Shown piece by piece: positions 33,799 through 50,867 of a DNA stretch of 64,000 nucleotides. Both the position numbers and the translations under genes were made by a program. Numbering within the stretch: the stretch's first letter is position 1; every line of letters starts with the position of its first letter. The notes beneath the pieces were generated by a model. It saw only the letters and a program-made list of their open reading frames with translations. It was not told the DNA's origin and searched no databases. Origin of the DNA: Gemmatimonadota bacterium (GTDB lineage: Bacteria; Gemmatimonadota; Gemmatimonadetes; Gemmatimonadales; Gemmatimonadaceae); assembly GCA_040389905.1 (NCBI GenBank), contig JAZJZK010000018.1, positions 24,868 to 88,867 on the forward strand, written 5' to 3'.

Positions 33799-34967
33799 TT
33801 CACATGCGCAGCCGCCTCAAGCGCTTGGCTGCGCTGATCGCCGACGGCCTCCTCTCGGCGGTGGGGCCTGCGCTGTGGCCACGGATACCAACGCGCGCAC
33901 TCCCGTCGTCGCCGCGAGTGCTGCTCATTCGCTGCGATCACATCGGCGACGCCGCGATGGCGACCGCCGTCCTGCCGTATCTGCGTGAGGTCCTCGAGCC
34001 GGAAGTGATCGATGTATTGGCCGGCCCGTGGGCGGCGGCACTCTTCGCATCGCGTGCCGAGGTCGATCGGGTCATGAGTTACGCAGCGCCGTGGTGGAGC
34101 AGCGCACGGGGCGCCGGCGTCATCGATCGAGTAAGACAGTGGGTTCGACTGCCGGGCGTCATTCGGCAGATTCGCGCCGGGCGGTACGACGTCGGCATCG
34201 ATCTTCGCGGCGACTTGCGGCAGATCGTCTTCTTCCTCGGCCTCGGAGGAATCCCGATTCGCGCCGGCACCGATCGCACTGGTGGACGGAGCGTGCTGAC
34301 CCACGCGTGGCCCTTCGACGCAGCGCGTCACGATGTCGACAAGAACTTCGCGATGATCGCCATGCTCGCGGGGGCGAGCGAGAAAGCGGCGGTCCGGGTC
34401 CGACGCAACCCGCATGACGTACGTATTCCCGCCGAGCCGCCACCAATGTTGCGAGAACGATTGGCGCAACCGTCTGAGTCGCTGCGCTACATGGTCCTTG
34501 CGATGCGCGGATCGGCACCCAATCGCGCGTGGCCCGCCACGCATGCCGCGATCGTCGCTGATGGCGTCCGCGAGATGGGATTCTCGGTCGTTCTCGTTGG
34601 ATCCGCAGCGGATGCGTCCTTCGCGAAGGAGGTCGGCGATGCAGCACGGCGAAGTGTCATCGACCTGACCGGACGGACCGCGATCAGTGATCTCGATGCC
34701 GTATTCACCGGTGCAACCGCGACGATTGCCGTCGATTCCGGCCCGATGCACTTGGCCTCGGCGGCAGGATGTCCGGTGATCGCGCTCTTTGGGCCCGGCG
34801 ACGCGCGGACGTGTGGGCCGTGGTCAGACCGAACGATGGTATTGCGGAGTGACGTTCCCTGTGTCTGTCGGAATCCGCAGTGTGACTTCACCAGCGGACC
34901 GGGACGCTGCATGCGGTCGATCGAGCCCGAAGCGGTGCTGACCGCCGTCAGGCAGATCGTGCGTTGA
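33795..34967 (+). CDS. GT9 glycosyltransferase
   Basis: DHIGD, DLTGRT, DSGPMHLA, ALFGP. Confidence 0.9.
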   Translation: MIHMRSRLKRLAALIADGLLSAVGPALWPRIPTRALPSSPRVLLIRCDHIGDAAMATAVLPYLREVLEPEVIDVLAGPWAAALFASRAEVDRVMSYAAPWWSSARGAGVIDRVRQWVRLPGVIRQIRAGRYDVGIDLRGDLRQIVFFLGLGGIPIRAGTDRTGGRSVLTHAWPFDAARHDVDKNFAMIAMLAGASEKAAVRVRRNPHDVRIPAEPPPMLRERLAQPSESLRYMVLAMRGSAPNRAWPATHAAIVADGVREMGFSVVLVGSAADASFAKEVGDAARRSVIDLTGRTAISDLDAVFTGATATIAVDSGPMHLASAAGCPVIALFGPGDARTCGPWSDRTMVLRSDVPCVCRNPQCDFTSGPGRCMRSIEPEAVLTAVRQIVR

Positions 34968-35955
34968 CTGCCGGCGTACGCTCGCGATACAGCGCGATCG
35001 CGCAGGCGAGCGCGAATCCCAACATCGCCGCCGCGACCGAGATGACGGCCGTGTATCGGGGCATCGCGGCAACGAGGCCTTCAGGAGGGTCGAGCACCGT
35101 GATCACCGGCGTATTGCGGACCGCTTCGATGCTCGCGAGCTCGTACCGTTGGGCGACCGTGGTATAGATCTGTTGGGCCAGCGAGACGCGGCGTTGCAAC
35201 TCGCTTTCGCGAGTGGCCAAGCGGGGAGAGCGCGAGAAATCGATGTTGGTGGCGCGAAATTCCGCGAGGGCATTCTCGGCGCGGCGGAGCGAATCGAGGG
35301 ATCCGGCGGCACGGGTTGCGGTGAACTCGCGCTCAGCGCCTGCCTGCGTCTGACGACGGCGAAGATTGAAATCGTTGACGAGGTCGAGCAGGCGCCGCGC
35401 AACAAGGGCCGACAAACGGCGATTCTTGGTTTTCACACGAAAGCGGACGACGCCCGTTGGACGATCGACCGTGACCGAGAGGGCTCGCTTCGAAAGACGG
35501 TTCATCGCGTCGATTTCGCGATCTCCCTGTGTCTTGCCGTCGCCATCGAAGTACTCCACCAAGGTGCCGGCAAACGGCTTTCCGTCGTACTCACCCACGC
35601 TGCTCGCATCGAAGCGCGTCGTGACGATGGCGTGGAGCAGCGCATTCGACGTCAGGAGGTCGCCGTAGAACTGCGGGCCGAGCGAGGCACTCCCCGATGC
35701 GATGGCGCTGAGCGCCGGAATGCCGAGCTGGGAGGCAATCGCACTGAGGCTCCCCGCCGTCCCACTCGCCGAACTCGGCTCGGTGGAGAGGAATGCGGCG
35801 CGCGCGGCGAAGTCGCGACGCCGGAGCAGGTTCGCACCCATCGCCGTCAGGCCGAATACGAGGGGAAGGGAGATGATGAGCCGAGCGTGCCGTCGCAAAG
35901 CACGAAGGTAGCCGGACAACAGCGCCGCGCCGTCCCGCGCTTCGTCAACGCTCAT
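34948..35955 (-). CDS. Wzz/GumC-like polysaccharide co-polymerase
   Basis: Two terminal TMs, coiled coil, ITVLDPP; no tyrosine-kinase domain. Confidence 0.8.
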   Translation of the reverse strand: MSVDEARDGAALLSGYLRALRRHARLIISLPLVFGLTAMGANLLRRRDFAARAAFLSTEPSSASGTAGSLSAIASQLGIPALSAIASGSASLGPQFYGDLLTSNALLHAIVTTRFDASSVGEYDGKPFAGTLVEYFDGDGKTQGDREIDAMNRLSKRALSVTVDRPTGVVRFRVKTKNRRLSALVARRLLDLVNDFNLRRRQTQAGAEREFTATRAAGSLDSLRRAENALAEFRATNIDFSRSPRLATRESELQRRVSLAQQIYTTVAQRYELASIEAVRNTPVITVLDPPEGLVAAMPRYTAVISVAAAMLGFALACAIALYRERTPAVNARSA

Positions 35956-38549
35956 GGACGGTACAGGATGGCGACGAGCGTCACGAGGCCGCCGATGATC
36001 TGCGCGATCACTCCGAGACGGGCGATCGTGTCCGGATGCTCTGTGGGATCCTTCTCGGTGACCATCACCGTTGCGCCGGCACGCGGCACCGGCACGTCAT
36101 CAGGCCGAAGTGTTCGTGTAACAAGGCTCTCGACGGTGCCGTCGGGCTGGGTCACGTACGATCGGCTGATTTCGGCGGAGCGACTCGGTCCGCCCGCCGC
36201 GCGTACGTAGTACAGCAGATCCGCGCCGGGGACGTACGCAACGCCACGCGGCGCGTTCACCGCGCCCTGTACCTCGACAATCGCGGTGAACTGTGGAAGA
36301 TGAATGGAATCGCCATCTTGCAGCACGAGATTGTCGCGAAACGTTGCGTCGCGAATAACCTGCGCGAGGTCGATGCCCACGCGCCCGACCCGACCAGTGC
36401 GTCGATAGAAGGCTACGCCATTCGGATATGCACTCTGCGTAAGTCCGCCCGCGCGCGCGAGTAGGTCACTCAGCCGATCCTGTTTTCCCGTGAGCGTGTA
36501 CGTACCGGGATAGCGAACCTCTCCAGTCAGCGCAACGCGGCGCGGCGGGGCCCAATCTGGTTGCGCAAGAATGAGGACGTTGTCGAAAGGACGAAGCATC
36601 ACCTCGGGCCGCGCGGCGAGGGCACGGCTCGGCGTGGAGACGTTATCGCCGCTCAGCGGCATCAGATATGACGAGTCGAGACGCACGCGTACGGTTTCGG
36701 CCAGCCGTCCGCCGTCGCGCGATACTGGAAGGCGCGCGATCTCCGCTTCACCAACGTCCGCACTTTCGGTGAGTCCGCCGGCGAGTAGTATCGCGTCGCG
36801 GATCGTCATGCCTTCGCGAAAAGTGAAACGACCCGGTTTGCGGACGGCACCTGTGATCGCGAGATAGGACACGGGCCGCAGCTCGGTTACGGAAAACACG
36901 CGAATCTCATCGTCTTCGCGGAGGAGGAAGTCGTCGGTGATGCGGCCGCTACTATCGGCGAACGAGGTGCGGAGTTGCACGCGCGTGGAGTCCGAGGCGC
37001 GAAGCCGCGAAACCAACACCTGCCCGAGAAAGGCGTCCGGTTTGATGCCGCCCGCGAGTCGCACGGCATCGGAAAGACGCATGCCGGGCGTGAGTCCCAC
37101 CGACCCTGGACTCCAGACGTTCCCGTTGACGGCAACGCGACGACCCACGCGACTACTGACCGCGAAGACCTGAATCACGTCTCCGGGTTCCATGGGGTAT
37201 GCCGGGCCAAACCCGGAGGTGAATTGGTCGGAAGCAATATCGATGATGACCCTGGCGCGGTCCGTGGTGTCGCGTTGTGCGGGCGGAAGCACGCGAGAGA
37301 TTTGCACGCGTCGCCGCACGGCATTGGCGGTGAACCCGCCAGCGGCGCGGATCGCGTCCGCCAGCGTCTCGCCGCGACGAAGCTCGTACGTCGCAGGCCG
37401 GACCACCTCACCATGCAGCCGCACACGGGGGCCATGCACCGGTACGAAGATCACGTCGCCTGATTGCAGTCGCGGATCGTGCGATGCATCGGCGCGCAAG
37501 AGGTAGTCGTACAGATCGAGGGTATCGACCAACTTGTTGCCGCGCCGAATCTCGACCCTCCGCATGCTGCCCGTGCGCCGCGGTCCACCTGCGGCGTACA
37601 GCGCCGTGAGCGCGGTACCTGCGCTCGACACGCGATAACTCCCGGGTTGGACGACGTCGCCGAGTACGACGACCTGATTCGTGTGGAGGCGTGCGAGGTT
37701 CAGGGAAAAGTGCGTCGTGGCGCCGGCACCGCGGTGAAGCCCGGAGAAGACCCGGCCCAGCCGTGGGTACAGAATGTCCTCGAGCTGGCCGAGTGTGAGG
37801 TTTGCGACAGCGATCTCGCCAACCCCGGGAACGACGATGAAGCCTTCGCGGGTGACGTCGAGTGTGAACGTGCGTTCTGCATCACCCGTGATGATGAGTA
37901 CGATTCGATCGCCGGCACCGAGACGGTAGCTGGCGTCGACTGGCCCGGTGAGATTTGCGTCGAACTGTGTTGTCGCGCCATCGAAGACGTTCGCGCCGAA
38001 GATAGTAAACCCGCTGTCAACAACCGGCCGCCGCGTCGCGGACAGGACGCGCGCTCCCCGAATTGGGCGTCCGAGTGAGTCGACGATGGTCTCTGCGGAG
38101 TCGCTCAAGGTCAGATCGAGAGCAGAATCACGACCAGCAACTGCTGCGTCCGACGCGAGGGGTCGGCGACCCTTCAGCAGCTGGCGCAATTCGGCGGTAT
38201 CGCCCGAGTCGGCAATGCCCAGCGCCGCGATGGCATCGAGCACTTCAACCGACGCCGTGGTGGCGGCCGTCGAGTCACCACCGGTGCGCAGTGGACGGAC
38301 ATAGGCGTCGAGAAGGTTCTCGGGGTACCCGGCGTTCCGCAGCCGTGCGCGAATCTGATCGGGGGTGAGTCCACTCGACGCAAGCTCTCGGCGCACCTGC
38401 GCGACGAGGTCGGGCCGCGTCTCGAGAATGCGCCGCGCCTGATCGGGAGACGGCAGGGGCGTTTGTGCGCCCACGATCGGCGCGGCGAGCACCAGCATCG
38501 AAACGGCAATGACGCGGGCGCGCGCCACCACGCCAGAAAAGCACTTCAT
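35952..38549 (-). CDS. Polysaccharide export protein with multiple SLBB domains (Wza/KpsD-like)
   Basis: YRLGAGD, repeated GEV..PG.Y and LAGG motifs. Confidence 0.9.
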   Translation of the reverse strand: MKCFSGVVARARVIAVSMLVLAAPIVGAQTPLPSPDQARRILETRPDLVAQVRRELASSGLTPDQIRARLRNAGYPENLLDAYVRPLRTGGDSTAATTASVEVLDAIAALGIADSGDTAELRQLLKGRRPLASDAAVAGRDSALDLTLSDSAETIVDSLGRPIRGARVLSATRRPVVDSGFTIFGANVFDGATTQFDANLTGPVDASYRLGAGDRIVLIITGDAERTFTLDVTREGFIVVPGVGEIAVANLTLGQLEDILYPRLGRVFSGLHRGAGATTHFSLNLARLHTNQVVVLGDVVQPGSYRVSSAGTALTALYAAGGPRRTGSMRRVEIRRGNKLVDTLDLYDYLLRADASHDPRLQSGDVIFVPVHGPRVRLHGEVVRPATYELRRGETLADAIRAAGGFTANAVRRRVQISRVLPPAQRDTTDRARVIIDIASDQFTSGFGPAYPMEPGDVIQVFAVSSRVGRRVAVNGNVWSPGSVGLTPGMRLSDAVRLAGGIKPDAFLGQVLVSRLRASDSTRVQLRTSFADSSGRITDDFLLREDDEIRVFSVTELRPVSYLAITGAVRKPGRFTFREGMTIRDAILLAGGLTESADVGEAEIARLPVSRDGGRLAETVRVRLDSSYLMPLSGDNVSTPSRALAARPEVMLRPFDNVLILAQPDWAPPRRVALTGEVRYPGTYTLTGKQDRLSDLLARAGGLTQSAYPNGVAFYRRTGRVGRVGIDLAQVIRDATFRDNLVLQDGDSIHLPQFTAIVEVQGAVNAPRGVAYVPGADLLYYVRAAGGPSRSAEISRSYVTQPDGTVESLVTRTLRPDDVPVPRAGATVMVTEKDPTEHPDTIARLGVIAQIIGGLVTLVAILYRP

Positions 38550-38645
38550 CAGCAAGTGGTTTGGCCATGAGGAAGGAGCACCGTCAATGTACGGCTGCGC
38601 ATGCACCCTCGGCTAGAAACTGCGGATCGGACAAGTCGCGGAGCA

Positions 38646-39560
38646 TCATCCGGCGTTGGTTGCATTTTCGACCACCGCGTGAAGAAGGTTGAGCGCATCG
38701 GCCGGCCGCGACGTCAGCGTCAACCGCCAGCCTCCGTGAGCCGAGAGCAGTCGCGCGACATCGCGGTGGCGCTGCGGAAAACGGTCGAAGCCCGGTGCGA
38801 GTTGCTCGTGGAGCTCACGTTCAAGCACGTGTGCATCGACTCGCGCGAGTGAGGCGGTCGCTCCGCGCGCGAGCACGCACAGCGTGACGCCCGACGAGGC
38901 CATCCAAACCTGGGTGCCCGGTTGTTCGAGGGGGACCGAGACCTTCTCCGCCCCGTCCGTGATCAGTCGCGCGCGAGGAGGGCCGCCCCACACTCGCATC
39001 GTCGGGTCTTGCTGCACCCAGACGTGATCGTCGCTCAGCACCGCGATTCCCATGCGGTGCGCCATGTGTGCGAGGGTGCTCTTGCCCATGCCGCTACCAC
39101 CCGCGAGCAGGATGGCGCGTTCTTCGTGAAGAAGCCCCGCCGCGTGAATGGGATGCCGGTCGAAATGGGCGAGCAGCGAGAAGGTGATCGCGTCGAGAAA
39201 CTCGAGAGGAAAGCGAGGATCTTCCACGAGCGCGGGGCTCACGTGCGCCATACTCTCTCGACGCAACGGATCTGCGAGCCCAACACTATCCGCACTCTCG
39301 ACCAGGAGTCGGCCGTCACCCAGATCGAGGTGCTCGATCATGTTCGCTCCATGTGCGGCCGAGGCGTCGCCGCGTACAGCGATGCGTACGGCGACCGATT
39401 CGGTTACGAGCGTTCCGTTCCCAAGCGCGTTCAGCCAACCACCAAAGCGATCGTTCACGAGTCGCATGACGTGCTCGCTGTTCGATTCGAAGCGAACCGC
39501 GATGCCGAGCACAGGCAGTGTGGTCGCGAATGGCAGCGCTGGCCATCGAATCATATGCAT
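38646..39560 (-). CDS. HPr-kinase-like P-loop kinase
   Basis: IHAAG...LAGGSGMGKSTL...VLSDD. Confidence 0.85.
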   Translation of the reverse strand: MHMIRWPALPFATTLPVLGIAVRFESNSEHVMRLVNDRFGGWLNALGNGTLVTESVAVRIAVRGDASAAHGANMIEHLDLGDGRLLVESADSVGLADPLRRESMAHVSPALVEDPRFPLEFLDAITFSLLAHFDRHPIHAAGLLHEERAILLAGGSGMGKSTLAHMAHRMGIAVLSDDHVWVQQDPTMRVWGGPPRARLITDGAEKVSVPLEQPGTQVWMASSGVTLCVLARGATASLARVDAHVLERELHEQLAPGFDRFPQRHRDVARLLSAHGGWRLTLTSRPADALNLLHAVVENATNAG

Positions 39561-40651
39561 ATCTCCGCGAACATCGTTTCGAACGCCGCCGCGGTGGCGT
39601 CAGCGTCGAACGCGAGTGCACGAGCCTGTGCCGCGCGGGCGATCGCCAATCGTCGGGGCTCGTCGGCAAGTAGTGCGATTGTCTCTCGTGCAAGCGCCGT
39701 GGCATCACGCACGGGCACGGCAACGGCGGCGTACGGGGCCCAATCGGTGAAGTGTCCTACCGCCGTTCCCACACTCGGAACGCCGGCAATCGCCGCCTCG
39801 AGCAACACCATCGGCTCGGCTTCGTGTCGCGAGGAGACGATCAGCACATCCGCTGAATCCATGAGGGCGCGGAGCGATTGCCTGTCGAGCACTCCATGCC
39901 AGCGAACGATGTCGCGAAGCGCTTGCGCGTGCGACGACTGCTGGAGCGCGCCATTCATGGTGTCGAGCCCCACGACATCGAGTGTGAAGTCCAGGCCATC
40001 ATCGCGCATACGGACGGCGGCAGCGAGAAGCACCGCCTGGTCCTTGACGGGCCGCAAGTCGCCGACGTGGAGGAGTCGCGCGCGGCGGCGTGTATCTCGT
40101 GCTCGAACAACAGCGAGCGGCCATCGATCCGTCGCAACACCGAAAGGAATGAGCTGTGCTTGCACCCCGATTGCCCGCGCAGTATGGGCGAGATGGTGGG
40201 ACGGGACAGTCACTCGTGTCGCTCCGCGCAACGCGACGCGAAGTTCGAAGCGGCCACGGCGCGTCGACCGCAGGCCGTAGCCAATCTCCGGCATCGTGAC
40301 GAGCTCCCCGCCAGTGCAGTGAAAAGCGACTGGCACTCGAAACAACCAACCGAGAAGTGCTCCGTATGTACCGCCCCAGCCGAAGATCCCTTGGATGACC
40401 CGGAAGCTTGACGCACGATGCTCCTCGCGAAACGCCCTGAGGAGTCGCCCGCGCCATCCACGCCCCGGGCCGACATTGTGAATCGTCGCGCCGAGCAGTT
40501 CCCACTCGGCGGGTCGAGGCTCCTGGTTGAACGAGAAGACGTGCACCTCGTGGCGGCGTGCGAGTCGTTCGAGCAGCCAGAGAACAGCGGGAATCACGTG
40601 CACGCTCCCGCTTCGGTCCACGCCACCGTGAATGAGGATGGCGATCTTCAC
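39551..40651 (-). CDS. GT4 glycosyltransferase
   Basis: VKDQ, SRHEAEPMVLLEA; GTGA overlap with the upstream stop. Confidence 0.88.
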   Translation of the reverse strand: MKIAILIHGGVDRSGSVHVIPAVLWLLERLARRHEVHVFSFNQEPRPAEWELLGATIHNVGPGRGWRGRLLRAFREEHRASSFRVIQGIFGWGGTYGALLGWLFRVPVAFHCTGGELVTMPEIGYGLRSTRRGRFELRVALRGATRVTVPSHHLAHTARAIGVQAQLIPFGVATDRWPLAVVRARDTRRRARLLHVGDLRPVKDQAVLLAAAVRMRDDGLDFTLDVVGLDTMNGALQQSSHAQALRDIVRWHGVLDRQSLRALMDSADVLIVSSRHEAEPMVLLEAAIAGVPSVGTAVGHFTDWAPYAAVAVPVRDATALARETIALLADEPRRLAIARAAQARALAFDADATAAAFETMFAEICI

Positions 40652-41829
40652 GGCAGCGAAAGTCCCGGTTCCGCGTCGCGTCGCAGATGCGCCAGGCATT
40701 TGCGCGCAATCAGCTTTTTTCTTCCGTCGAGGGACGCCTCGACGACCGGTATGCCGCAGTGCTCGAACCAATCGGCAAAATCGGGATCGGCGACCGCGGG
40801 GACACCGGCGCGTACGACGGCGCGAATGTCGCTTCTGGTCGTTCCGAGCAGCGCTCCGCATGGATTGCCGGATGCAGGCAGGATGATGCAGTCCGCCCGG
40901 TGGCGCGAGGTCAGTTCGCCAGCCCGAGGTGCACGCAGGACGCGCGCAGCATCGGTCGTCACCAGTTGAAACAACTCGGCAGGCGTGAGGTCGCTGCATG
41001 CCTGCGCCACGCGGAGTTCTTCCAGGAGATCTCGCGACCCCGTGAGGCGAGAGTCCGTACCGAGTGCGAGACGCCCTGCGTTGAAGAGCCTGCGAGCATC
41101 GAGCGTCCGACCGAACATCGAGCGGTTGCTCGACGGGCACCATATGACAGCGGCCCGTGCCCCGATCACGCGATCGACGTCGCGCTCGGAAAGTCCAACA
41201 CCGTGAACGAGTACGGTGTTGGATGCGAGGCATCCCAAGGCTTCCAGCTGCTCGAGTTCCGCCGCGGCGATGTCATCGATGCCTTCGGCCAGGTGAATGA
41301 TCCACGGCATGGACGCCGAGGTCGCGTTGAAGCTTTCGAGAACGGCTGGCCCGTATCGAGGCCGGTGGCCGGGGCTGGACGCACCGAGGCCGAGTGAGTG
41401 ACACCATCCGAATTCCTTCAGTAATTCCGCGGGGAAGCTCGGATCGGCGAGCGCGACGTGCCACGGATCGTGATGAGCGACGGTCGTGGCTCCGGCCAGA
41501 ATATTCTTTACCCCCCCCTGCCAATACCGTTCGTGGCGCGTCATCGCAGTAAGGGCGCCAGGCGCCTCAGCAAGCGTTTGCGACCAGGCGTCGATCCACT
41601 GGTAGCTGTTTGCGAACGGCGGCAAATGCTCCAGCGGCGCAATGCCATTCAGGTGGAGGTGATCGTGTGCATTGATGAGGCCTGGCAAGATCATGTGATC
41701 GTGCAGATCAATCCGTAGAGCACCAGCACGAGGTGCGCCACCAACGACTCCGTCGCTGAACGCGAGCGACTTCGCCACAACGCCATCGGGTGTAACCACC
41801 CGGGCATTGTCGAGAATGATCGCGCTCAC
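40648..41829 (-). CDS. Amidohydrolase / deaminase (SsnA/MtaD-like)
   Basis: PGLINAHDHL, HLAEG, LVHGV, LGTDS. Confidence 0.88.
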   Translation of the reverse strand: MSAIILDNARVVTPDGVVAKSLAFSDGVVGGAPRAGALRIDLHDHMILPGLINAHDHLHLNGIAPLEHLPPFANSYQWIDAWSQTLAEAPGALTAMTRHERYWQGGVKNILAGATTVAHHDPWHVALADPSFPAELLKEFGWCHSLGLGASSPGHRPRYGPAVLESFNATSASMPWIIHLAEGIDDIAAAELEQLEALGCLASNTVLVHGVGLSERDVDRVIGARAAVIWCPSSNRSMFGRTLDARRLFNAGRLALGTDSRLTGSRDLLEELRVAQACSDLTPAELFQLVTTDAARVLRAPRAGELTSRHRADCIILPASGNPCGALLGTTRSDIRAVVRAGVPAVADPDFADWFEHCGIPVVEASLDGRKKLIARKCLAHLRRDAEPGLSLP

Positions 41830-41850
41830 CTGGCCCGGTGCCTCAGTGTG

Positions 41851-42807
41851 TCAGGCAAGGGATTGCACGGGGCGCGCTCGGCGCGCCAGCCATTCGCCGT
41901 ACATTCCACTCACATGCGCCAGTTGCCGGCTCGTTTGACCTTTCTCACTCGCAACGGTGCAGACGAAAAGCACGTGAGAGCCAATGCGATGTGCGTCAGT
42001 CACCGTGAGCTCTCGCACCAAACCAGGCTGCGCGAGCACTGGAAGGCCGAACAGATCCGAAGGACGAACAGCCACTGGTATTGAAGCAAACTCGATACTC
42101 CGCATGTGATGCTGCTTGCCGAGTGCATAGACTTCCCTGTGCAACGCGGCGGGAGCGCCACTCATCGCAATTCGACGCGAATCCTCCATCACCGCAATCG
42201 ATGCACTCGTTGCGCGCAGCGTCAGGAGATACTCGCCTGAAGAAAGCGAACCAACGAGATCCATCGGGAACAGGTTCGTGCTCGTATCATTGGCGACGCC
42301 GACGAGAAACACCGGCCGCGCAACGATGTAATACGCGTTGAGGCAGCGCAGATCCCTCGCCGACATCCTGAGACGATCGCCGCGTGCTGCCGATCGACTC
42401 GCGTGGCGCGCAGCCAGCAGGTACCGCCACCATCGAATCGGCGGCGACACACACCGGTTGTGACATCCGGTCGTCTCGACCAGAAGCAAGACGCCCTGTG
42501 AGAGGGAGACCCTTCCGGTGACGCTCAGGTGAATGGATGCGAGCGCAACGGCGGCTTCCTTCGCGTCGAAGATGTCCAGCCTCAGCGGCATACCAGGCGT
42601 CGTATTGCCGATGACAGTGGGATCGACATGCAACCCTATCATGAAGGGGCGGAGCGAGACGGGAACGTGCGCTGAAGAAACGTCGAGCGCACCCACGGGA
42701 AGACCGTGGAGCACGACACGAACCTCGGGCTGCCGCTCGTCAGGGAGTGCAATTGGCATGTGACGAAGGTCCCTGCCATTTCTGATCAAGCGCAGAAACC
42801 CGATCAC
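41851..42807 (-). CDS. Flavin-reductase-like (split-barrel) protein
   Basis: RPVFLV...NLFPMDL...IGSHVLF. Confidence 0.6.
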   Translation of the reverse strand: MIGFLRLIRNGRDLRHMPIALPDERQPEVRVVLHGLPVGALDVSSAHVPVSLRPFMIGLHVDPTVIGNTTPGMPLRLDIFDAKEAAVALASIHLSVTGRVSLSQGVLLLVETTGCHNRCVSPPIRWWRYLLAARHASRSAARGDRLRMSARDLRCLNAYYIVARPVFLVGVANDTSTNLFPMDLVGSLSSGEYLLTLRATSASIAVMEDSRRIAMSGAPAALHREVYALGKQHHMRSIEFASIPVAVRPSDLFGLPVLAQPGLVRELTVTDAHRIGSHVLFVCTVASEKGQTSRQLAHVSGMYGEWLARRARPVQSLA

Positions 42808-43505
42808 CGCGATTTCCTTAGAACAAGCGTGACGAAGTTGCTCGCGCCGCCGTCGCGCACTTCATCGACGGCGAGCGTAAAACAAGGTTGCGCCATCCTC
42901 CGCAGTGAACGCGAAAAGTGGCGGTACGTCGTCACTGCTCCATCGACCTTGATCGATCCCGTCCAGACAGATGTCGCAGCTCCCCTCCACCACCAGAGCT
43001 TCTTCATGTCCCGGCGGTAGAACGGATTGAGCACACTGGCGATTACCGCTCCGTCGCGCACCATGTACCGCTCCAGCAGCCGCAGCAGGGGATTCAAGTC
43101 GCGAAAGTGATTCAGTACCGCAAAATTGGCTGCCACGGCGGTGACGGGACCCGTGCGCTCCAACATTGCGATCAGGTTGTCCAGATCGCCGTCGACCGGC
43201 GCAATCACTCCTGCGGCAATCTCCGCCGCGCAACGCGTCCTCAAGAGATTGACCATGCCACGGGATATGTCATAGGCAATGACCTGATGACCTCGCGCCG
43301 CGTACCAAGCGGCGTCAATACCGGTGCCGCACCCGAAATCGAGCAACGTTCCCCGTGGGCCAGCGATCGCGGAGACACGCCGACAGAACGCCTCTCGCGC
43401 GGTGACGTTCCTCGCGACACCGTCGACGTCTGCGTCATACCGTGCGGCGATGGCGTCGTAATACCTCGCCGTCTGTTCTGCCTCTTCACGCGTACCGTAC
43501 GTCAC
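42804..43505 (-). CDS. Class I SAM methyltransferase
   Basis: LLDFGCGTGID, NFAVLNH. Confidence 0.88.
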   Translation of the reverse strand: MTYGTREEAEQTARYYDAIAARYDADVDGVARNVTAREAFCRRVSAIAGPRGTLLDFGCGTGIDAAWYAARGHQVIAYDISRGMVNLLRTRCAAEIAAGVIAPVDGDLDNLIAMLERTGPVTAVAANFAVLNHFRDLNPLLRLLERYMVRDGAVIASVLNPFYRRDMKKLWWWRGAATSVWTGSIKVDGAVTTYRHFSRSLRRMAQPCFTLAVDEVRDGGASNFVTLVLRKSR

Positions 43506-44566
43506 TATTCCCGACCGTCGGTCAATGACAGCGTGCAAACACACGTGCGACAGATCGCGTTCCGCTCAACGTCGAGCCCAGCCCTCCATTCGATCGCTGC
43601 CGACGAATTGAGAATGGCGACGAGACTCCCGGACTCGTGAATGTTTCCGAGCGGCGCCTGAAAGAAACACGGCCGCACGGTGCCATCAGACTCGATCACG
43701 CTCGACACCCACGGCGCGTTACACCGGTTGGGATGAAACACGTCGTGGCCACGGAGCGCCGCGTAGTACTGGCTCAGGCGCCACCGTAGTTTTTCCGGCG
43801 ACTCCGCGATGAAGCCGGACGCAAACTCCGCCGCGAACTCCGATTCGAGCGCGTCGATCTCGCGCGACAATGCAGCGATCTCCGACGGCTCGAGTGCCAC
43901 GGGACGGACGCTTTCGTCTGTCCATCCGCCGGGATGATTGAATGCGTCGCTCGTAACATCCGCCGCGAGGAAGCTGATGCGATCGAGCGACAATGAACGC
44001 GCTGCGTCCACCGTTGCCCGCAACTGATCGTGATTGGCGCGCTGCACCGTACAGCGACCCGAGATGCGGACGGTTGCGTCCGCGGCCTTCACGGCGGCGA
44101 CGCCGCGCGCGAGACGCTCGTACGCGCGCGGCACGTTGCGAATTCGATCGTGGATGGCCTCTGGTCCGTCCAGGCTCACCACGACATCGTCACACCGTTT
44201 GACCAGCTCGGCGGCATGCCGCTCGAGGAGAAGACCCGTGCTCAGGATCGAAATGCCGACGCCCGCCGTGCGCAGCAGATCGCAAAATTCCCAGAGATGC
44301 GAATGCATCAGCGCCTCTCCGCCGCTCAGAACAACCCGACGCACGCCGAGCGCGCGCCATTCATCGATCCACTTCGCAATGTCCGATGCGGCGAGTTCGG
44401 ACTTCGTGGTCGACCGCCAGATGTCGCACATCATGCAGCGACAGTTGCAGCGACTGTGCGGAAAGAGAATGAGAATCGGTAACTGCGTAATGGGATCCAC
44501 GCGCGGGAGTGCCACGTCTCGCTGTTCCAGTGGCGCGGGAGTCGGCCTCGGATCGAGTATCGTCAT
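43505..44566 (-). CDS. Radical SAM enzyme with SPASM/Twitch domain
   Basis: CNCRCMMC, SGGE, CNAPW...DGTVRPC...CRTCVC. Confidence 0.9.
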   Translation of the reverse strand: MTILDPRPTPAPLEQRDVALPRVDPITQLPILILFPHSRCNCRCMMCDIWRSTTKSELAASDIAKWIDEWRALGVRRVVLSGGEALMHSHLWEFCDLLRTAGVGISILSTGLLLERHAAELVKRCDDVVVSLDGPEAIHDRIRNVPRAYERLARGVAAVKAADATVRISGRCTVQRANHDQLRATVDAARSLSLDRISFLAADVTSDAFNHPGGWTDESVRPVALEPSEIAALSREIDALESEFAAEFASGFIAESPEKLRWRLSQYYAALRGHDVFHPNRCNAPWVSSVIESDGTVRPCFFQAPLGNIHESGSLVAILNSSAAIEWRAGLDVERNAICRTCVCTLSLTDGRE

Positions 44567-45678
44567 CGGACGAGCGCCGCGTATGCGTCGCCCAGTTGCC
44601 GTCCGATCGCGTCATAGGTCAGTGCATCGTCGAATCGCGCCCTCACGACAACGCGCAACGCGGCCTTGTCGCGCGACGCCCACTGGATGATCGCGTTGCC
44701 CAGCGCGGGCGCATCGCCCACAGGCGTCAGTGACCCGGCATCGCCCACAATCCGTCGCGCCGACGGAATGTCCGTGACCAAGGGCGTGGCGCCCGCCGCA
44801 ATCGCCTCGAGCAAGGCGAGACTCCCTCCTTCACGATGACTGGTTTGGACAAAAAAGTCGGCCGACCGCGCTCGCAGTTCGATCTCATCGCGCGGCCGCG
44901 TGCCGAGCAGCGTGACGCGGTCCTTAAGTAGAGTGGAGCTCGCGATCCGCGCCTGTACCTGCTCGAGCAGTGGCGCCTCGCCGAAGCAGCACCAGAGCTG
45001 CAATCCGGGCAGTGCCTTCACCGCATGCTCCACGGCGCTGAGCATCATCATCGGATCCTTGTTCGCATCGAGGCGGCCGCACCAGAAGAGACAGGGGTCG
45101 CCGAACATCCCCGTCAGCTGTCGTGCCGTGTCGCGGTCGCCGACGGCAAAGTCACTGGAACCGCTGAGCACTTCGAAGATGGGGAGCTTTTCCCGAAGAA
45201 TTCGCGCGTTCTTCCACGGTATCGCCTGGTCGCGCGAAGTGAACGTCGCCCCCGCGAGTACGCCGTGCGCCCACCGCCATGCGGCGACTCGCCAGCCCGA
45301 TGGCAACTGGTTTCCGCGGTCCTGCACGACGATCGGCGCACCGCGCACGGCGCGCGACAAGGGGCGCATCGCACGGGGGAAGTTGAGACCTTGCACGTGG
45401 ACAACGTCAGGACGCAGCAACGACACGATGTCCATAACGCGACTCCACTCTCGGTGCGCGCCAGCGACAAAATGAAATGGAACGCCGTCGCGCTCGATCA
45501 TCTCGGACCGGTGTGCGGTCTGCACGACCGTCACGTCAATGCCCGCGCGCGCCGTTGCTGCGGCCATCGCGGGAAGCAGGGGCCACGCGTGCAGCAACGC
45601 CGCCCCGTCGCGCTGCTGAGGATCCGCAAAAAGACTGAGCTGCACGACGCGAAGTCTGGGCAACCGCGGCGAGGTCAT
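44563..45678 (-). CDS. GT4 glycosyltransferase
   Basis: GRLDANKDP, SHREGGSLALLEA. Confidence 0.88.
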   Translation of the reverse strand: MTSPRLPRLRVVQLSLFADPQQRDGAALLHAWPLLPAMAAATARAGIDVTVVQTAHRSEMIERDGVPFHFVAGAHREWSRVMDIVSLLRPDVVHVQGLNFPRAMRPLSRAVRGAPIVVQDRGNQLPSGWRVAAWRWAHGVLAGATFTSRDQAIPWKNARILREKLPIFEVLSGSSDFAVGDRDTARQLTGMFGDPCLFWCGRLDANKDPMMMLSAVEHAVKALPGLQLWCCFGEAPLLEQVQARIASSTLLKDRVTLLGTRPRDEIELRARSADFFVQTSHREGGSLALLEAIAAGATPLVTDIPSARRIVGDAGSLTPVGDAPALGNAIIQWASRDKAALRVVVRARFDDALTYDAIGRQLGDAYAALVR

Positions 45679-46349
45679 CGCTCCGAGCCCTCGGACTTGC
45701 GCAGCAGGCGTGCTGCGACCAACGGCGACCCGAATTGGGCAGTGTAGGCGGAGAGGCGCCCCGCCTCCTCATAGTAGTGTCGCACCGTCGGGCCAACATG
45801 TCCCATCACGTGCCGCTCGACGTGGAGCCCCACGGCGCGCGCTGCGCGCTGGTGCGCGAGATCGTCATGCACGAAATGCTCGAGCTCACGCGGGACGCCA
45901 TCGGCATCCACGAAGGTTCTCCGATGCCCGGCGGCGATCGCCTCCGGAGCAATGTCGGTCACGATCACCCGGCCGCCCGGCACACAGACGCGCGAAAGTT
46001 CAGCGTAGGCCGCAACGACGTCGTACACGTGCCCAATCATGAGACGGCACCAAACGATATCGAACGCGCACTCGGCAAGGGGAAGCGCGCAGACATCCGC
46101 GACGACGAGCGTGCGCGCGTCCTTCGCCGCGGCGAGCATGTCGAGCGACAGATCCACGCCAATCGCGATCGCGGCATTCGTCTCACGTAACCGGCGCGCG
46201 GTTCCGCATCCAACGTCGAGCAGCGCACATGCCGCCGTCGCAACGTGCAGTGCGGCGACCGTTTCATTCTCGAGATGACTCACCACGGTTTCCTGCTCGT
46301 AGTGCGCCGCCCACAACGCATATCCTTCTCGTGCGGTGAGCACGCTCAC
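45675..46349 (-). CDS. Class I SAM methyltransferase (BioC-like)
   Basis: EGYALWAAHY, LDVGCGT; GTGA overlap. Confidence 0.85.
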   Translation of the reverse strand: MSVLTAREGYALWAAHYEQETVVSHLENETVAALHVATAACALLDVGCGTARRLRETNAAIAIGVDLSLDMLAAAKDARTLVVADVCALPLAECAFDIVWCRLMIGHVYDVVAAYAELSRVCVPGGRVIVTDIAPEAIAAGHRRTFVDADGVPRELEHFVHDDLAHQRAARAVGLHVERHVMGHVGPTVRHYYEEAGRLSAYTAQFGSPLVAARLLRKSEGSER

Positions 46350-47872
46350 GCTGAACCAACGTTCGCGATCGTCGCCGGGGCTCGCAGGTGGCCGTACGCT
46401 TGCGCATCGGGTGGCGCCCGATGTGCGAGCCGCCGAACGAGACGCAACATGCGCGGATCGGCATAGTGGCCGGTTGACCAACGGCGCGCGGCGAGCACCC
46501 GGCCAAGGGCCTTTCCCCAGTCCGCCGTCTTGGCATCCTGCACCGAGGGAAATCGGCTCTTGAGCACCATCTCGAAATCGGTCACCTTCGCCTTGAGACG
46601 CGTATCCATCCACGGCACGAGGGGATCTTCGTGCGTCATCCAGGCAACCCACTCCGGCTCGATCCATTCGTCGAGCGTCTGTGGCGTGGACGACACCGCG
46701 TCGACGTTACCGTACGTCCCGCGGCGCTGCGGCGTCGGAGTGTAGAAATAGGTGATCAACTCCATCAGCGGATTGACGTGCTTCAGCCTCCGGATGAAGG
46801 CGAGCGTTTCATCGATTCCGCGCTCGGGATCATCGGGATCGCCGAACACGAATGAGAACTCAGGAATGACGCCGTGCGTACGTGACCGCGCTGCGACCTC
46901 GAGAATCTGCGCGGTCGTCGTTCCCTTGTTCATCTTCGCGAGCACCTCGTCCGAACCAGATTCCGCGCCGCAAAACACCATGGTCAGTCCGGCGCGCTTC
47001 AACAGCGTCCAGGTGTCGTCGGAGAATCGGGTCAGTGCGTCGACGCGCGCCTCACACCACCACTTGAGCCCCAACGGTATCAACCGCTCGGCGAGCTCGC
47101 GTGCGTGATCCTCCCTGACGAAGAAGTTGTTGTCGTAGAAATGCACGGAATCCATTCCGTGCTCGCGAGCGAGATACGTGAGATGCTCCACGGTGCGGGC
47201 AGGCGCCTGCATGCGTTCTCGGCTGCCGAACACGGAGATCACGCCGCAGAACTTGCAGCCGAAGGGACAGCCAATCGACGACTGATATACCCCTGATCGT
47301 CGTCCGAGAAACGTCGGCCGCAGATAGTCGGCAACAGCGATCTTGTGGTACGGCGGCGCCGGCAGCTCATCGGGTCCTTTCCAGTGACGCTCCCTCCCGA
47401 TCCAGTGGCTGCCGTCGGTCTCCCGAAAGCACAGCCCATCCACTGATCGAGCATCACGACTTCCAGCAAGCACGGCGAGCAACTCGACGATCGTTTCCTC
47501 GCCCTGCCCCCGAACGACCCAGTCGACGTATGACGCATTGAGGACTGGTGCGGGATAGAGACTCGGAAAGTTCCCGCCCCAGACGATGGCGACGTCTGGA
47601 TGACGCGCCTTCAATGCGCGCGCGAGCGGAACCGCGCTGACCAGCTGTGGACCTGGCATGACGGAGAACGCGGCGACCCTCACCGGATCGCCACGACGGG
47701 CACCCGCGTCGATATGTGCGGTCAGCTCCTCGAGGACGTCCACATCCGGCAGATTCCCGTCGACGATCTCCCAGTTCACCTCAGCAGGCAACGCCGCACC
47801 CACCGCCATGACTGACAGTGGAAAACGCCGATTCGAGGGGCGCGTGGCCCGCGGGTTTATGAGCAGGATCAT
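46346..47872 (-). CDS. B12-binding radical SAM enzyme
   Basis: Cobalamin domain (WGGNFPS, RGQGE), GCPFGCKFC, GAESGS. Confidence 0.92.
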   Translation of the reverse strand: MILLINPRATRPSNRRFPLSVMAVGAALPAEVNWEIVDGNLPDVDVLEELTAHIDAGARRGDPVRVAAFSVMPGPQLVSAVPLARALKARHPDVAIVWGGNFPSLYPAPVLNASYVDWVVRGQGEETIVELLAVLAGSRDARSVDGLCFRETDGSHWIGRERHWKGPDELPAPPYHKIAVADYLRPTFLGRRSGVYQSSIGCPFGCKFCGVISVFGSRERMQAPARTVEHLTYLAREHGMDSVHFYDNNFFVREDHARELAERLIPLGLKWWCEARVDALTRFSDDTWTLLKRAGLTMVFCGAESGSDEVLAKMNKGTTTAQILEVAARSRTHGVIPEFSFVFGDPDDPERGIDETLAFIRRLKHVNPLMELITYFYTPTPQRRGTYGNVDAVSSTPQTLDEWIEPEWVAWMTHEDPLVPWMDTRLKAKVTDFEMVLKSRFPSVQDAKTADWGKALGRVLAARRWSTGHYADPRMLRLVRRLAHRAPPDAQAYGHLRAPATIANVGSA

Positions 47873-48708
47873 CGAATGCTATCCGGCGCGGCCATTTCGG
47901 TGCGCTCGAACTCCAGCAGCACATGATCCCCGAAGACTGCCAGCGGTTTCGACACGACGCGGTCGAGCGCTTCGAGCACGCCGAGCGCGCGCGGATGCCG
48001 CGAGATCCATGGCTCCGCCGCACTGGGTGGCACGAACACGCCGATGCCGCGACGGCCGATATAGTGGAACCAAGGCTGGAACGCCCGACGGAAGTCGGCT
48101 GCGCGATGATAGCGTACGGTGAACTCCTGACCACCAAGTCGCGCATGCACATCGCCGGTGGCCAACCGCCGCACTGCCGCCTTGGGATCTCCCCTGATCA
48201 TCTGCACGACGAACTCGCCCGGCGAGCAGATACCGAACACGACGAGCAACACCCGAGCGCCGGGACGCAGTGCAATGGCTAGCCCGCGAGCGACTGACGT
48301 GAGCTGCGTGGTGCAATTGAGCGCAGCGAAGTTCGAGAACGCGCCGTCAAATCGTTGCGCACCGTCCACGCATACGGGCGAAAGATCCTCCGCGGAGGCG
48401 ACCACCGGCGTCTCGAGTCCGTACGGACGAACTTTTTCCGCGGCGATGCGGACCATCGAGGGTGATGGATCGGTGAGGAATACAGTGCGGCCGCGCTCGG
48501 CCAGCCAGGCGGCGTCCTCGCCAGTACCCCCGCCCAGCTCGAGCAATCTCGAACCGTTGGGAAAGGCCTCCACCAGTGCGGCCCGGACGGCACGACGCTG
48601 TGCTGAAACGCTCTCCCATGCGCCAAACCGGGCATCGAAGCGTTCGGCAACGGCGTCGAATGCCCGGACGGCGGGAGCCAGCTCAAGCGTCGACGCCGGC
48701 GACACCAT
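47869..48708 (-). CDS. Class I SAM methyltransferase
   Basis: LELGGGTGEDA, FSNFAALNC. Confidence 0.88.
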   Translation of the reverse strand: MVSPASTLELAPAVRAFDAVAERFDARFGAWESVSAQRRAVRAALVEAFPNGSRLLELGGGTGEDAAWLAERGRTVFLTDPSPSMVRIAAEKVRPYGLETPVVASAEDLSPVCVDGAQRFDGAFSNFAALNCTTQLTSVARGLAIALRPGARVLLVVFGICSPGEFVVQMIRGDPKAAVRRLATGDVHARLGGQEFTVRYHRAADFRRAFQPWFHYIGRRGIGVFVPPSAAEPWISRHPRALGVLEALDRVVSKPLAVFGDHVLLEFERTEMAAPDSIR

Positions 48709-50118
48709 TCAGCGATGGACCGCGGCGAGCGGTTCAGGTGACCGATGCGTGGCTTCGCGCGCCGCGAGCGCCGTCCACGCAGCATCGTCAGGGACCGACG
48801 ATCGCGCTTCTTCGTGGAGGAGGTCGCGAAGCTGACGATAAAAATCGGTCGTATACGTCCCATGAAAGAGCATCGCGAGGTCGTCTGTGTCCTGCCAATT
48901 CTGCTGAAGTCCGAGCTGCGCCTGCACCTTCGCGTGGAACTTCGTGCCTGGCAGTGGATACGCCACGCTGACGCCGACGTCGTCCGGTCGCTCCTCTCGG
49001 AGAAGATCACGAGTCAGCAGCACGTCGTCCCACGTCTCCGTGGGGTAGCCGAGTTGTAGAAACCAGCAGGCGCGAATGTCGTGCTGCTTGAGAGCGCGTG
49101 TTGCGGCACGGACTTCGCTGACGGTGGTACCCTTGTCCATCGCATCCAGGATTCGTTGCGAACCCGACTCCACGCCGATCCAGACTTCCTCGGCGCCGGC
49201 ACTCGCGAGCGCAGAAACCACCTCGGGACGAAGCAGGTCAGCGCGACATTGAATCATGAAGGGGATCCGTGCGTCGCGCGCACTCACTTCCGCCGCAAAG
49301 TGCGTGATCCACTGCGTCGTCAGGCCGAAAATATCATCCGCAAACCAGACATGGTCCGGGCAAACCTCGGTCTTGAGAAGCTGCATCTCCTCAGCAACGC
49401 TCTCTGGTGAACGCTGTGCGTACCTGCGTCCAAAGATGGGTTTCGCGCACCAGTTGCAGCCAAACGGACAGCCGCGCGACGTGACCATGTTCCAGGAGAA
49501 TCTTCCGTGCGCTCTCACCCACGCCGAGCGATACGCGTCGACATCGACGAGATCCCACGCAGGAAATGGCAGGGCATCGAGATCCTCCACACCTCTCGCG
49601 TGCGCCGTTGACCGGGCGACATCGTGGCCATCCCGAATGACGAGCCCGGGAATGCTCCCGAGTTTCGCGCTCTCCGCATGTCGCCAGGTGTCCGCAAGCG
49701 CGAGGAAACTCGCGTCGGCCTCCCCAGTGATGACCGCATCGGCACCAGCGTCGAGGTAGAGCGCTGGGTGGTCGGACGCGTCGGAACCGTTGACGGCGAC
49801 ACGGCAACCGGCGGCTTGTGCGGCAGAAACCATCGCAAGCGTCGTCTCGCGCGTGGCCACCGTGCACATCTTGGTGAGGTAGTTGAAGTTGTCCTCCAGA
49901 ATGCCGACGACGGCGGGTCGCAGGCGATGAACCAGCGCGACGAATTCATCAACGCCATTTGCCAGGGTCGCGTCGAAAAGCGCAACCTCGTGACCGGCGC
50001 TGCGGCACGACGCCGCTACCAGCAGCGTTGCCAGCGGCGCATACGGCTTCATTCGATCCAGCTGCTTCCGATCGTGCCGCAGGAAGAGCGAGCTAGCAAG
50101 AAGGATCATGTCGCTCAT
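48709..50118 (-). CDS. B12-binding radical SAM enzyme
   Basis: PLATL, TGEAD, SRGCPFGCNWC, GVESGSQRIL. Confidence 0.92.
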   Translation of the reverse strand: MSDMILLASSLFLRHDRKQLDRMKPYAPLATLLVAASCRSAGHEVALFDATLANGVDEFVALVHRLRPAVVGILEDNFNYLTKMCTVATRETTLAMVSAAQAAGCRVAVNGSDASDHPALYLDAGADAVITGEADASFLALADTWRHAESAKLGSIPGLVIRDGHDVARSTAHARGVEDLDALPFPAWDLVDVDAYRSAWVRAHGRFSWNMVTSRGCPFGCNWCAKPIFGRRYAQRSPESVAEEMQLLKTEVCPDHVWFADDIFGLTTQWITHFAAEVSARDARIPFMIQCRADLLRPEVVSALASAGAEEVWIGVESGSQRILDAMDKGTTVSEVRAATRALKQHDIRACWFLQLGYPTETWDDVLLTRDLLREERPDDVGVSVAYPLPGTKFHAKVQAQLGLQQNWQDTDDLAMLFHGTYTTDFYRQLRDLLHEEARSSVPDDAAWTALAAREATHRSPEPLAAVHR

Positions 50119-50314: not shown

Positions 50315-50764
50315 TTACTTGTGACTCAGGCTGTACACATACGCCGCGACCTGCTTGATCTGCTCATCGCTCAAATTCGACCCACCGCGCGGATTCATCG
50401 CGAATTGCGCAGTCGCGAGCTTGATCTTGTCCTTTGGTACGCCCGTCGTGACGATTTGCACGATTTCAGCGTAGGTGCCGGTGATCTGCGACCACGTGCC
50501 ATCGGTCAGGTCGGGAGCGCGCGGACCACCCTTCGCCTCCATGCCATGGCACCGCTGGCAGCTGCCCTTGTGGTAGATCGAGTCGCCCACCGCAATCATG
50601 GCGAGCGTGACGCCTGCGGGAAGCGCGGGTGTGGAGGAGGCAGCTGGCGCGGCGGCGGGCTGAGGCGCACTGGCGGGCGCCGGCGACGAAGCACTCGAGC
50701 ACGCAGTCGCCAGAACGCCAGCGACGGCAATGAGACTGACACGGGGAGAAAAACGAACCGGCAT
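50315..50764 (-). CDS. Monoheme c-type cytochrome lipoprotein
   Basis: Lipobox LATAC, CQRCH, distal Met in MNPRGG. Confidence 0.88.
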   Translation of the reverse strand: MPVRFSPRVSLIAVAGVLATACSSASSPAPASAPQPAAAPAASSTPALPAGVTLAMIAVGDSIYHKGSCQRCHGMEAKGGPRAPDLTDGTWSQITGTYAEIVQIVTTGVPKDKIKLATAQFAMNPRGGSNLSDEQIKQVAAYVYSLSHK

Positions 50765-50867
50765 CGGGGTCCCTCGGAAGGTGAAGTACGGGTAGTGCAC
50801 AGGGATGACGATAACTTCACTCAGCCCGCGCGCGGCGCAAGGGCGATTTTCTTGACGCCTCGGATCG

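Follow-up and report, generated by a model that had tools for sequence, protein, structure and literature searches.

The stretch of DNA considered here, 64,000 nucleotides of contig JAZJZK010000018.1 of a Gemmatimonadota bacterium (referred to below as the window), contains two radical S-adenosylmethionine (SAM) enzymes with cobalamin (B12)-binding domains, several methyltransferases (MTs) and glycosyltransferases of family GT4 next to genes for polysaccharide export. It raises the question of what such enzymes produce at this place, and whether they are part of an export operon or form a unit of their own. The first-pass annotation described thirteen co-oriented genes (34948–50118), most of them overlapping or abutting, as a single assembly line. 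The layout is as it described: all thirteen genes lie on the minus strand in the order given there, and 10 of the 12 junctions overlap or abut (gaps in gene order of 0, −4, −4, −4, −4, −40, −4, +21, −4, −10, +39 and −4, with 4-base overlaps at seven junctions). However, the thirteen genes taken together are not the conserved unit; what travels between genomes is a cassette that includes the gene for a PF14907 nucleotidyltransferase, and co-transcription with the export gene wza would be local only. This cassette is real and has no known product, and no description of it was found in the literature searched (mostly open-access, main texts). Our tentatively favoured explanation is that it builds a small unusual side group, which would be attached (probably via a phosphate) to a surface polysaccharide predicted to be exported by the adjacent Wzy/Wzz/Wza proteins; that an envelope glycan of some kind is the target is likely overall.

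Composition and distribution of the cassette

Loci were collected using one of the B12-domain enzymes, rSAM_B (46346–47872), as the anchor. A scan of GTDB genomes yielded 157 relatives, the best 80 of which were used (66–83% identity in rSAM_B; in the closer loci the radical enzymes are 56–83% identical, and their C-terminal domains are likewise highly conserved). Genes were counted in 44 close loci of at least 20 kb, with hidden Markov models built in-house from these same loci and thresholds of our own choosing, and in a comparison set of 20 distant loci. Gene distances were determined in 54 whole genomes, which were selected from 100 loci for long contigs and are related to one another.

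The conserved unit consists of two B12-domain radical SAM enzymes, methyltransferases, an MT2/amidohydrolase pair, an HprK-like kinase, the PF14907 nucleotidyltransferase and optional GT4 enzymes. Its core order is rSAM_A-MT1-(MT4)-rSAM_B with the kinase and the nucleotidyltransferase, followed by MT2-amidohydrolase. The kinase (38646–39560) was present in all 44 close loci, rSAM_A (48709–50118) and the class I SAM methyltransferase MT1 (47869–48708; Pfam) in 43 each, and MT4, an extra methyltransferase beside MT1 in most relatives, in 38; MT4 is missing from the window and was not found in a search of the host assembly. The PF14907 gene (28465–29889, minus strand, start probably near 29793) was detected in 35 of these loci, MT2 (45675–46349; Pfam, best NCBIfam match BioC below its cut-off) in 34, and its partner, a deaminase-type amidohydrolase recognised by Pfam and by HDH, HxxE, H and D residues conserved in the alignment (40648–41829), in 33. 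MT2 and the amidohydrolase are fused in 4 of the 20 distant loci, and fusion clusters occur in the Atlas too.

The remaining enzyme genes of the run are accessory. The cassette-exclusive GT4b (39551–40651; Pfam) was found in 30/44 close loci, the cassette-associated GT4a (44563–45678; Pfam) in 26/44, and the flavin-reductase-like gene (41851–42807; a weak Pfam match of 23 bits, below the cut-off), with which the methyltransferase MT3 (42804–43544; Pfam) travels, in 7/44. The third radical SAM enzyme, referred to here as the twitch enzyme (43505–44566), was present in 4/44 close loci and is commoner in the distant ones (13/20); the wza type of the window was seen in 5/44. The kinase and nucleotidyltransferase are thus more constant than the GT4s, the twitch enzyme, MT3 or the flavin-reductase-like gene. 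The PF14907 gene occurs in 46 of the 54 genomes, in 41 of them within 30 kb of rSAM_B, as compared with 35 and 34 for GT4b. Hence the nucleotidyltransferase, which had been listed as a mere neighbour, is a core member, even though in the window it lies 17 kb away, where it brackets the glycan block.

That the core is conserved across genomes, and matches no curated family at cut-off, bears out an expectation raised with the first-pass annotation. The cassette is shared by three phyla, being found in Gemmatimonadota, Acidobacteriota and some Alphaproteobacteria. Among the best 80 of the 157 relatives the carriers are Gemmatimonadota, whose metagenome-assembled genomes hold the closest named loci, Sphingomonadales, Caulobacter, Gluconacetobacter, Rhizomicrobium and one Vicinamibacterales record. 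Cultured carriers include Caulobacter sp. BK020 and S45, Sphingomonas sp. Root241, S. kyeonggiensis DS2008 and three Gluconacetobacter strains. Its distribution is patchy even within the genus, where orthologues of rSAM_A were detected in 10 of 24 congeners (the other 14, one of which, G012, represents unpublished data, being non-carriers). In surveys of 301 genomes each (E 1e-100 or better, five candidates scored per genome), rSAM_B was found in 9 genomes of the host's own phylum, in 23 of the phylum of carrier G041, which we take from the order name of the record to be Acidobacteriota, and, for the class of carrier G042, in the centre genome only. In loci of the Acidobacteriota type, as many as five B12-domain paralogues, which fall into distinct clades, accompany the twitch enzyme; by comparison, the window contains a reduced version of the cassette. 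The G+C content of the cassette region (0.61–0.66) is the same as that of its flanks. Searches with rSAM_B gave no match in plasmids (E 1e-30) or viral contigs, the Atlas searches returned uncharacterised clusters only, and none of the six SAM enzymes of the window reached a curated NCBIfam cut-off.

Linkage to polysaccharide export

Wza genes (PF02563) are found near the cassette far more often than expected by chance. Among the matches listed (19 of 169 stand outside them), 21 of the 54 genomes have a wza gene no more than 30 kb from rSAM_B (2.3 expected) and 13 have one no more than 15 kb away (1.1 expected), the expectation being derived from the number of matches and genome size with kinship ignored. 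Many of the contigs are short, and one genome (G937) in which wza is present by tblastn was left out of the count. The 20 cassette-adjacent Wza proteins that were compared form six groups (51–82% identity within, at most 42% between), which is consistent with repeated recruitment. In the arrangement typical of Caulobacter BK020 and Sphingomicrobium, the cassette is split around an exopolysaccharide (EPS) cluster in 6/6 fetched flanks: MT2 and the amidohydrolase head a co-oriented run that includes a gene for a protein of 430–470 amino acids (aa), wza and wzc, and the EPS genes separate it from the radical SAM genes, which are about 25 kb away. No Pfam match at 1e-9 was found for the two 430–470 aa proteins that were scanned. 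In the flanks of four close Gemmatimonadaceae loci (L116–L119), the side of the glycan block that borders on the PF14907 gene is formed by the priming transferase in 4/4, and in three of them this is the end far from the radical SAM genes. Within the genus, an orthologue of the window's wza (67–75% identity) occurs in 4 of the 24 congeners, all of them carriers, and in 0/14 non-carriers, with six carriers lacking it; most congeners hold a 53–58% paralogue.

In the window itself, the kinase gene is followed by that for a long SLBB-repeat polysaccharide export protein of the Wza/KpsD type (35952–38606, start probably near 38550; Poly_export and SLBB) and by that for a Wzz-like chain-length or co-polymerase protein (34948–35955; a weak EpsF match and an equally weak GNVR match, the latter below the Pfam cut-off). 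Of the proteins that characterise a Wzx/Wzy locus, Wza (Poly_export/SLBB) and Wzy_C are found over cut-off, and GNVR weakly. No terminator-like site was found at the kinase-wza junction, and in a promoter scan no sigma-70 site was detected, with terminator counts at the level of chance (9 versus 10.8). Direct adjacency of the kinase gene and wza is limited, however, to the window and four close loci (L017, L021, L024, L080), and in L019, L025 and L043 opposite-strand rml genes separate the two; co-transcription with wza would therefore be a local arrangement only. The claim that the enzymes are wired into an export operon thus stands as regards linkage, which is well above chance, but a shared operon with wza would be confined to a few loci.

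The genes for the repeat unit vary with the host. The four close relatives carry GT9, GT2, GT4 and acetyltransferases, the Caulobacter type has a capsule-type dehydratase/epimerase, a transketolase pair and a DegT aminotransferase, and Rhizomicrobium has nucleotide-sugar genes and Wzi. Because these genes vary while the radical enzymes stay conserved, we infer one conserved substrate belonging to the cassette itself, and a side group of its own is more likely than editing of one repeat sugar.

The radical enzymes, the kinase pair and the possible product

Cobalamin-dependent radical SAM enzymes are marked by S/T, GG and GE motifs downstream (PMC9204698). rSAM_B contains a B12-binding domain (PF02310, 46 bits, cut-off 32.1) and the radical SAM cysteines CPFGCKFC (CX3CX2C), and its clade retains A-x-S/T, WGG and GQGE. 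As all three motifs are present, cobalamin-dependent C-methylation by this enzyme is plausible. In rSAM_A, which has the same two domains by Pfam, GE is kept, GG is replaced by NG, HG or AG, and S/T is absent. Its cobalamin pocket is also altered by an inserted loop, EDNFNF/YLTKMC (EDNFNYLTKMC in the window), the KMC of which is present in 27/27 members of its clade in the tree; a sister paralogue in other loci has ordinary cobalamin motifs. In the rSAM_A model (pLDDT 87.8) the loop follows strand 70–74, and in a profile alignment Asp76 aligns with the lower-axial Asn186 of OxsB. The fold is about equally close to AprD4 (Z 29.5, rmsd 3.0, 420 residues aligned) and OxsB (Z 28.5, rmsd 3.5, 426 aligned), both ahead of MgmA, TsrM, CysS and TokK; ranked by Foldseek E-value, the protein methylase MgmA comes first. 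OxsB, which catalyses the ring contraction in oxetanocin formation (5ul3/5ul4), resembles rSAM_A in its overall fold, in a polar lower-axial residue and in lacking a perfect GG, so that rSAM_A may still bind cobalamin. It differs in that rSAM_A is 18% identical to it, has a conserved inserted loop of 10 residues with an invariant Cys, and occurs in another gene context. AprD4, for its part, binds no cobalamin (PMC12931638) and dehydrates a sugar diol (PMC5461906). Non-methylating chemistry of rSAM_A is a lead only, since function does not follow from a common fold when identity is about 20%. With its pocket changed and its nearest folds those of non-methylases, the earlier proposal of C-methylation by both B12 enzymes is doubtful; the broader one, that six SAM enzymes build or decorate an unusual glycan, is partly supported.

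The third radical enzyme was called an rSAM-SPASM protein, and Pfam does find both domains. However, its auxiliary domain contains five Cys only (282, 300, 339, 342 and 344), and we take it to be of the shorter twitch type. Its best PDB match is BlsE (E 4.6e-11), confined to the core domain. B12 seems to be salvaged by the host, which has MetH and, upstream of a gene resembling BtuB (scoring below the TIGR01779 cut-off), a cobalamin riboswitch; a search of its assembly, 85% complete, did not find CobS.

The kinase assignment is based upon NCBIfam HprK_rel_B (39 bits, cut-off 200) and a profile match to solved HprK, and the His, P-loop (GxSGxGKS) and DD motifs are retained. In the PF14907 protein, identified by Pfam as of nucleotidyltransferase fold, D201 and D203 (DxD) are invariant; a single-sequence model reached a pLDDT of 35, and a profile search of the PDB found no relative. 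The family is mentioned in one phosphonate preprint, in an unrelated context. A comparable pair is formed by PsmK, which phosphorylates Ser in pseudomycoidin, and PsmN, whose two essential Asp (DxD) are required for placing a hexose on the phosphate made by PsmK (PMC6993621). As the kinase/PF14907 pair is constant, with a DxD as in PsmN and the kinase motifs kept, attachment through a phosphate is suggested. Given that peptide clusters with such a pair also lie near polysaccharide genes (see below), the pair may serve quite generally to couple some cargo to glycans, or else its co-location with glycan genes is uninformative.

In the proposed pathway, which goes beyond the gene content, conservation, linkage and catalytic motifs shown here, the kinase would phosphorylate a hydroxyl on a building block, and the PF14907 protein would convert the phosphate, after the manner of PsmK/PsmN, into a nucleotide-activated form or a sugar-phosphate diester. 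rSAM_B would then methylate an unactivated carbon, and rSAM_A may carry out non-methylating radical chemistry such as dehydration or rearrangement. MT1 and MT3 (and MT4 in relatives) would add O- or N-methyl groups, with MT2 acting coupled to the amidohydrolase, and GT4a and GT4b, where present, would add or attach sugars.

Several observations weigh against attachment of a side group to an exported polysaccharide. In 33 of the 54 genomes no listed wza lies within 30 kb of rSAM_B (some of the wza-less loci have Wzy_C, Wzx, GT87, GT2 or sulfotransferase neighbours, others no export gene), and since these genomes were picked for long contigs and are related, the enrichment of wza overstates the independence of the cases. 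GT4b was not found in 19/54 genomes, and the best PDB matches of rSAM_A are weak (at most 22% identity). The HprK-like kinases characterised in PMC6993621 and PMC13381572 act on Ser of peptides and not on sugars. The peptide clusters known as LPP, with an HprK and nucleoside triphosphate (NTP) transferase, themselves lie amid polysaccharide genes (PMC13381572), so that co-location alone is no proof of a glycan target. Lastly, the open reading frames (ORFs) of the cassette are intact in the window while the local glycan block is damaged (see below); if the polymer half were dead and the cassette maintained, an independent product would be favoured.

The alternatives fit parts of these data. The version of the first-pass annotation, in which the enzymes modify the sugars of the repeat unit or their nucleotide precursors to give C- or O-methylated backbone sugars, draws on the same wza linkage, flank and lineage data. 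Methylation of sugar carbons is known for GenD1 and GenK, which are radical SAM enzymes of class B (PMC5461906), radical methylation would be the sole route to C-methyl sugars in a core without a nucleoside diphosphate-sugar dehydratase, and up to five paralogues in one Acidobacteriota locus would suit modification at several sites. We consider it unlikely, however, as the enzymes stay highly conserved across hosts whose repeat-unit genes differ strongly, no role falls to the constant pair of kinase and PF14907 protein, and rSAM_A looks non-methylating. Another candidate product, either a small free glycoside resembling aminoglycosides or nucleosides or the head group of a glycolipid, with proximity to EPS genes due to shared regulation or mobility, would account for several loci with no export gene within 10 kb and for an ABC-exporter family present in many. 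The gene set parallels the tailoring enzymes of gentamicin and apramycin (GenD1, GenK, GenN, GenP, AprD4/AprD3), where two B12-domain radical SAM enzymes, a methyltransferase (in gentamicin/apramycin tailoring an N-methyltransferase) and a phosphotransferase act on sugars (PMC5461906); moreover, the closest matches are AprD4 for rSAM_A, BlsE for the twitch enzyme and, weakly, small-acceptor GT4s such as BshA and MshA for GT4b. These PDB similarities are all weak (about 21% identity in the case of gentamicin/apramycin), several lineages have EPS operons with cassette genes interspersed, the cassette is linked to Wza, and no conserved scaffold-forming enzyme, aminotransferase or dehydrogenase is present, which makes this product quite unlikely. 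Membership in an aminoglycoside cluster was rejected, there being no recurring aminocyclitol synthase or sugar aminotransferase and DegT occurring in the EPS block of one lineage only.

A peptide or protein encoded elsewhere, which would be phosphorylated, phosphoglycosylated and methylated as in paeninodin, pseudomycoidin or LPP, is suggested by the fact that an HprK-like kinase and a DxD NTP transferase, often amid polysaccharide genes, are the tailoring pair of PsmK/PsmN, PadeK (paeninodin) and LppK/LppN (PMC6993621, PMC13381572), and by the top Foldseek rank of MgmA. Unlike these systems, the cassette has two to five B12-domain radical SAM enzymes, methyltransferases and an amidohydrolase, and it lacks a precursor, RRE/PqqD, leader peptidase and lasso cyclase. 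The absence of a precursor peptide, already noted in the first-pass annotation, is borne out by a search of 101 loci, where conserved ORFs of 20–120 aa (1559 small ORFs in all) were only shadows of known genes. The recurrent families of the core do not include PqqD, lasso B2, asparagine synthetase or any peptidase; an S8 peptidase lies within an accessory extracytoplasmic function (ECF)-sigma module of some loci, and PqqD was not found in 3/5 carrier genomes and is unlinked in the other two. A peptide substrate is hence improbable, and membership among the lasso- or LPP-type ribosomally synthesized peptides was rejected: the kinase and NTP transferase are present, but precursor, RRE/PqqD and leader peptidase are missing. 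That the B12 enzymes are BchE, or hopanoid enzymes of the HpnJ/HpnP type, is hardly credible. Many homologues carry the Joint Genome Institute label 'anaerobic Mg-protoporphyrin IX monomethyl ester cyclase' (about 110 bits versus a cut-off of 481), and BchE and HpnJ are the top NCBIfam matches. However, these matches score 94–112 bits against cut-offs of 481 and 578, the models for BchE, HpnJ, HpnR, TIGR04295, PhpK and AprD4 all give at most 112 bits against cut-offs of 251–775, no bch or hpn neighbours occur in any annotated locus, and squalene-hopene cyclase was not found in 2/5 carriers, with a weak partial match in the host; both identities are largely refuted by these scores and the gene context. 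TIGR04295, a B12 radical SAM protein of the Rhizo-twelve oligosaccharide cassette, presumably stands for an uncharacterised cassette in a glycan context; its companion genes differ from those found here, and membership failed (101 and 51 bits versus a cut-off of 400).

Returning to the side-group explanation, the nearest functional parallel to the cassette would be an accessory cassette that provides a substituent in a Wzy-type locus, with a tailoring pair of the paeninodin type joined to radical chemistry like that of aminoglycoside tailoring. In Wzx/Wzy capsule and EPS loci, likewise, accessory cassettes make and activate a substituent beside the export genes. The logic of the Campylobacter phosphoramidate involves a kinase, a nucleotidyltransferase, a hydrolase and methyltransferases; in contrast to it, the cassette uses other protein families and radical SAM chemistry. 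No B12 radical SAM enzymes in a side-group role for surface glycans were found in the literature searched. There is a real chance of new enzymology: if the explanation is true, B12-dependent and related radical chemistry would be added to cell-surface glycan biosynthesis, the large uncharacterised HprK-like/PF14907 pair would gain a general function in phosphate coupling, and one scaffold would be acted on by as many as five paralogous radical enzymes. Capsules decorated with methyl groups or phosphodiesters would affect how phages bind, how hydrophobic the surface is and how microbial polysaccharide decays in soil, and the cultured carriers make the cassette directly testable. A more far-reaching version, which we hold to be doubtful, is a widespread pathway of soil and freshwater bacteria where a polymethylated or rearranged unit resembling a sugar is made by up to six radical SAM enzymes and coupled by phosphodiester to many different capsules through the kinase/nucleotidyltransferase module that lasso clusters use for peptides, with rSAM_A forming a new subclass whose Cys loop replaces or ligates cobalamin.

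The glycan block of the window and the surroundings of the cassette

Between the Wzz-like gene and the PF14907 gene lie a GT9 glycosyltransferase (33804–34967, plus strand; Pfam), which is variable among relatives, a Wzy_C polymerase- or ligase-like membrane protein (32431–33798, plus; Pfam, with orthologues in L116–L119), a multi-pass membrane protein (31018–32412, minus; orthologues in L117 and L113) and the Cps2T-like GT4c (29876–30996, plus; NCBIfam and alignment). The multi-pass protein was earlier called Wzx; the membrane gene is there, but with no Pfam or NCBIfam match it is a putative flippase only. The adjacent GT4 is likewise present, but its reading frame is broken near 30740, with no indel relative to the contigs of run X1, which are a possible source of the window DNA and not independent of it. 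The priming transferase, which in 4/4 flanks of relatives is located between GT4c and the PF14907 gene, is missing in the window; homologues occur on contigs C27 and C8. The local polymer genes may thus be crippled, the polymer half either decaying or borrowing a priming enzyme from elsewhere.

To the left of this block, positions 24594–24653 contain the 3' portion of a tRNA-Pro, matching the full tRNA-Pro on contig C12 at 97% over 60 nt; this fragment was missed by ARAGORN and is probably an attachment site bounding a mobile region on this side; an Rfam scan of the window yielded a tRNA and a 5S rRNA and nothing else. The region left of the fragment encodes an IrrE-like peptidase, CusABC-like efflux and a heavy-metal P-type ATPase. 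An 850-aa protein with eight choice-of-anchor Z/IPT repeats (25438–27990) adjoins a gene for an outer-membrane beta-barrel protein (24781–25431).

Other genes adjoin the cassette in its relatives. A fusion of a Gfo/Idh/MocA oxidoreductase with a 2-hydroxyacid dehydrogenase (~695 aa), often accompanied by an extra methyltransferase, is found beside it in L032, L046, L063, L067, L068, L075 and L083. An NAD-epimerase gene, for which Pfam gives Epimerase only, is inserted in the cassette in L019 (15345–16733) and L080 (11780–12937), and its N-terminus resembles that of the UDP-sulfoquinovose synthase SqdB. In three distant loci (L099:7529–8506, L103:13782–15353 and L115:8286–9008), rSAM_B is adjoined by a conserved protein of ~300 aa without Pfam match, with a DxD-like motif and possibly a GT-A fold. 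RtcB, RtcA and TROVE RNA-repair genes border the cassette in L069 and L077. Flanks with a cupredoxin, an unannotated porin-like gene and a TylF methyltransferase, with a cupredoxin and cytochrome c, or with MtrAB-type genes were seen in three lineages (L052, L057, L059, L061, L066, L067, L078, L082, L086, L088; L097, L098, L102; L065, L081, L085, L093); the cupredoxin occurs in 11/44 close and 3/20 distant loci, is absent from the window and is not counted as core. On the right of the cassette in the window, positions 50315–57552 encode a cytochrome c, an aminotransferase, Omp85, a TMEM260-like protein O-mannosyltransferase, a CBM48 protein and an ECF sigma factor, some of which are likewise located ahead of the cassette in L020, L021, L024, L034 and L080.

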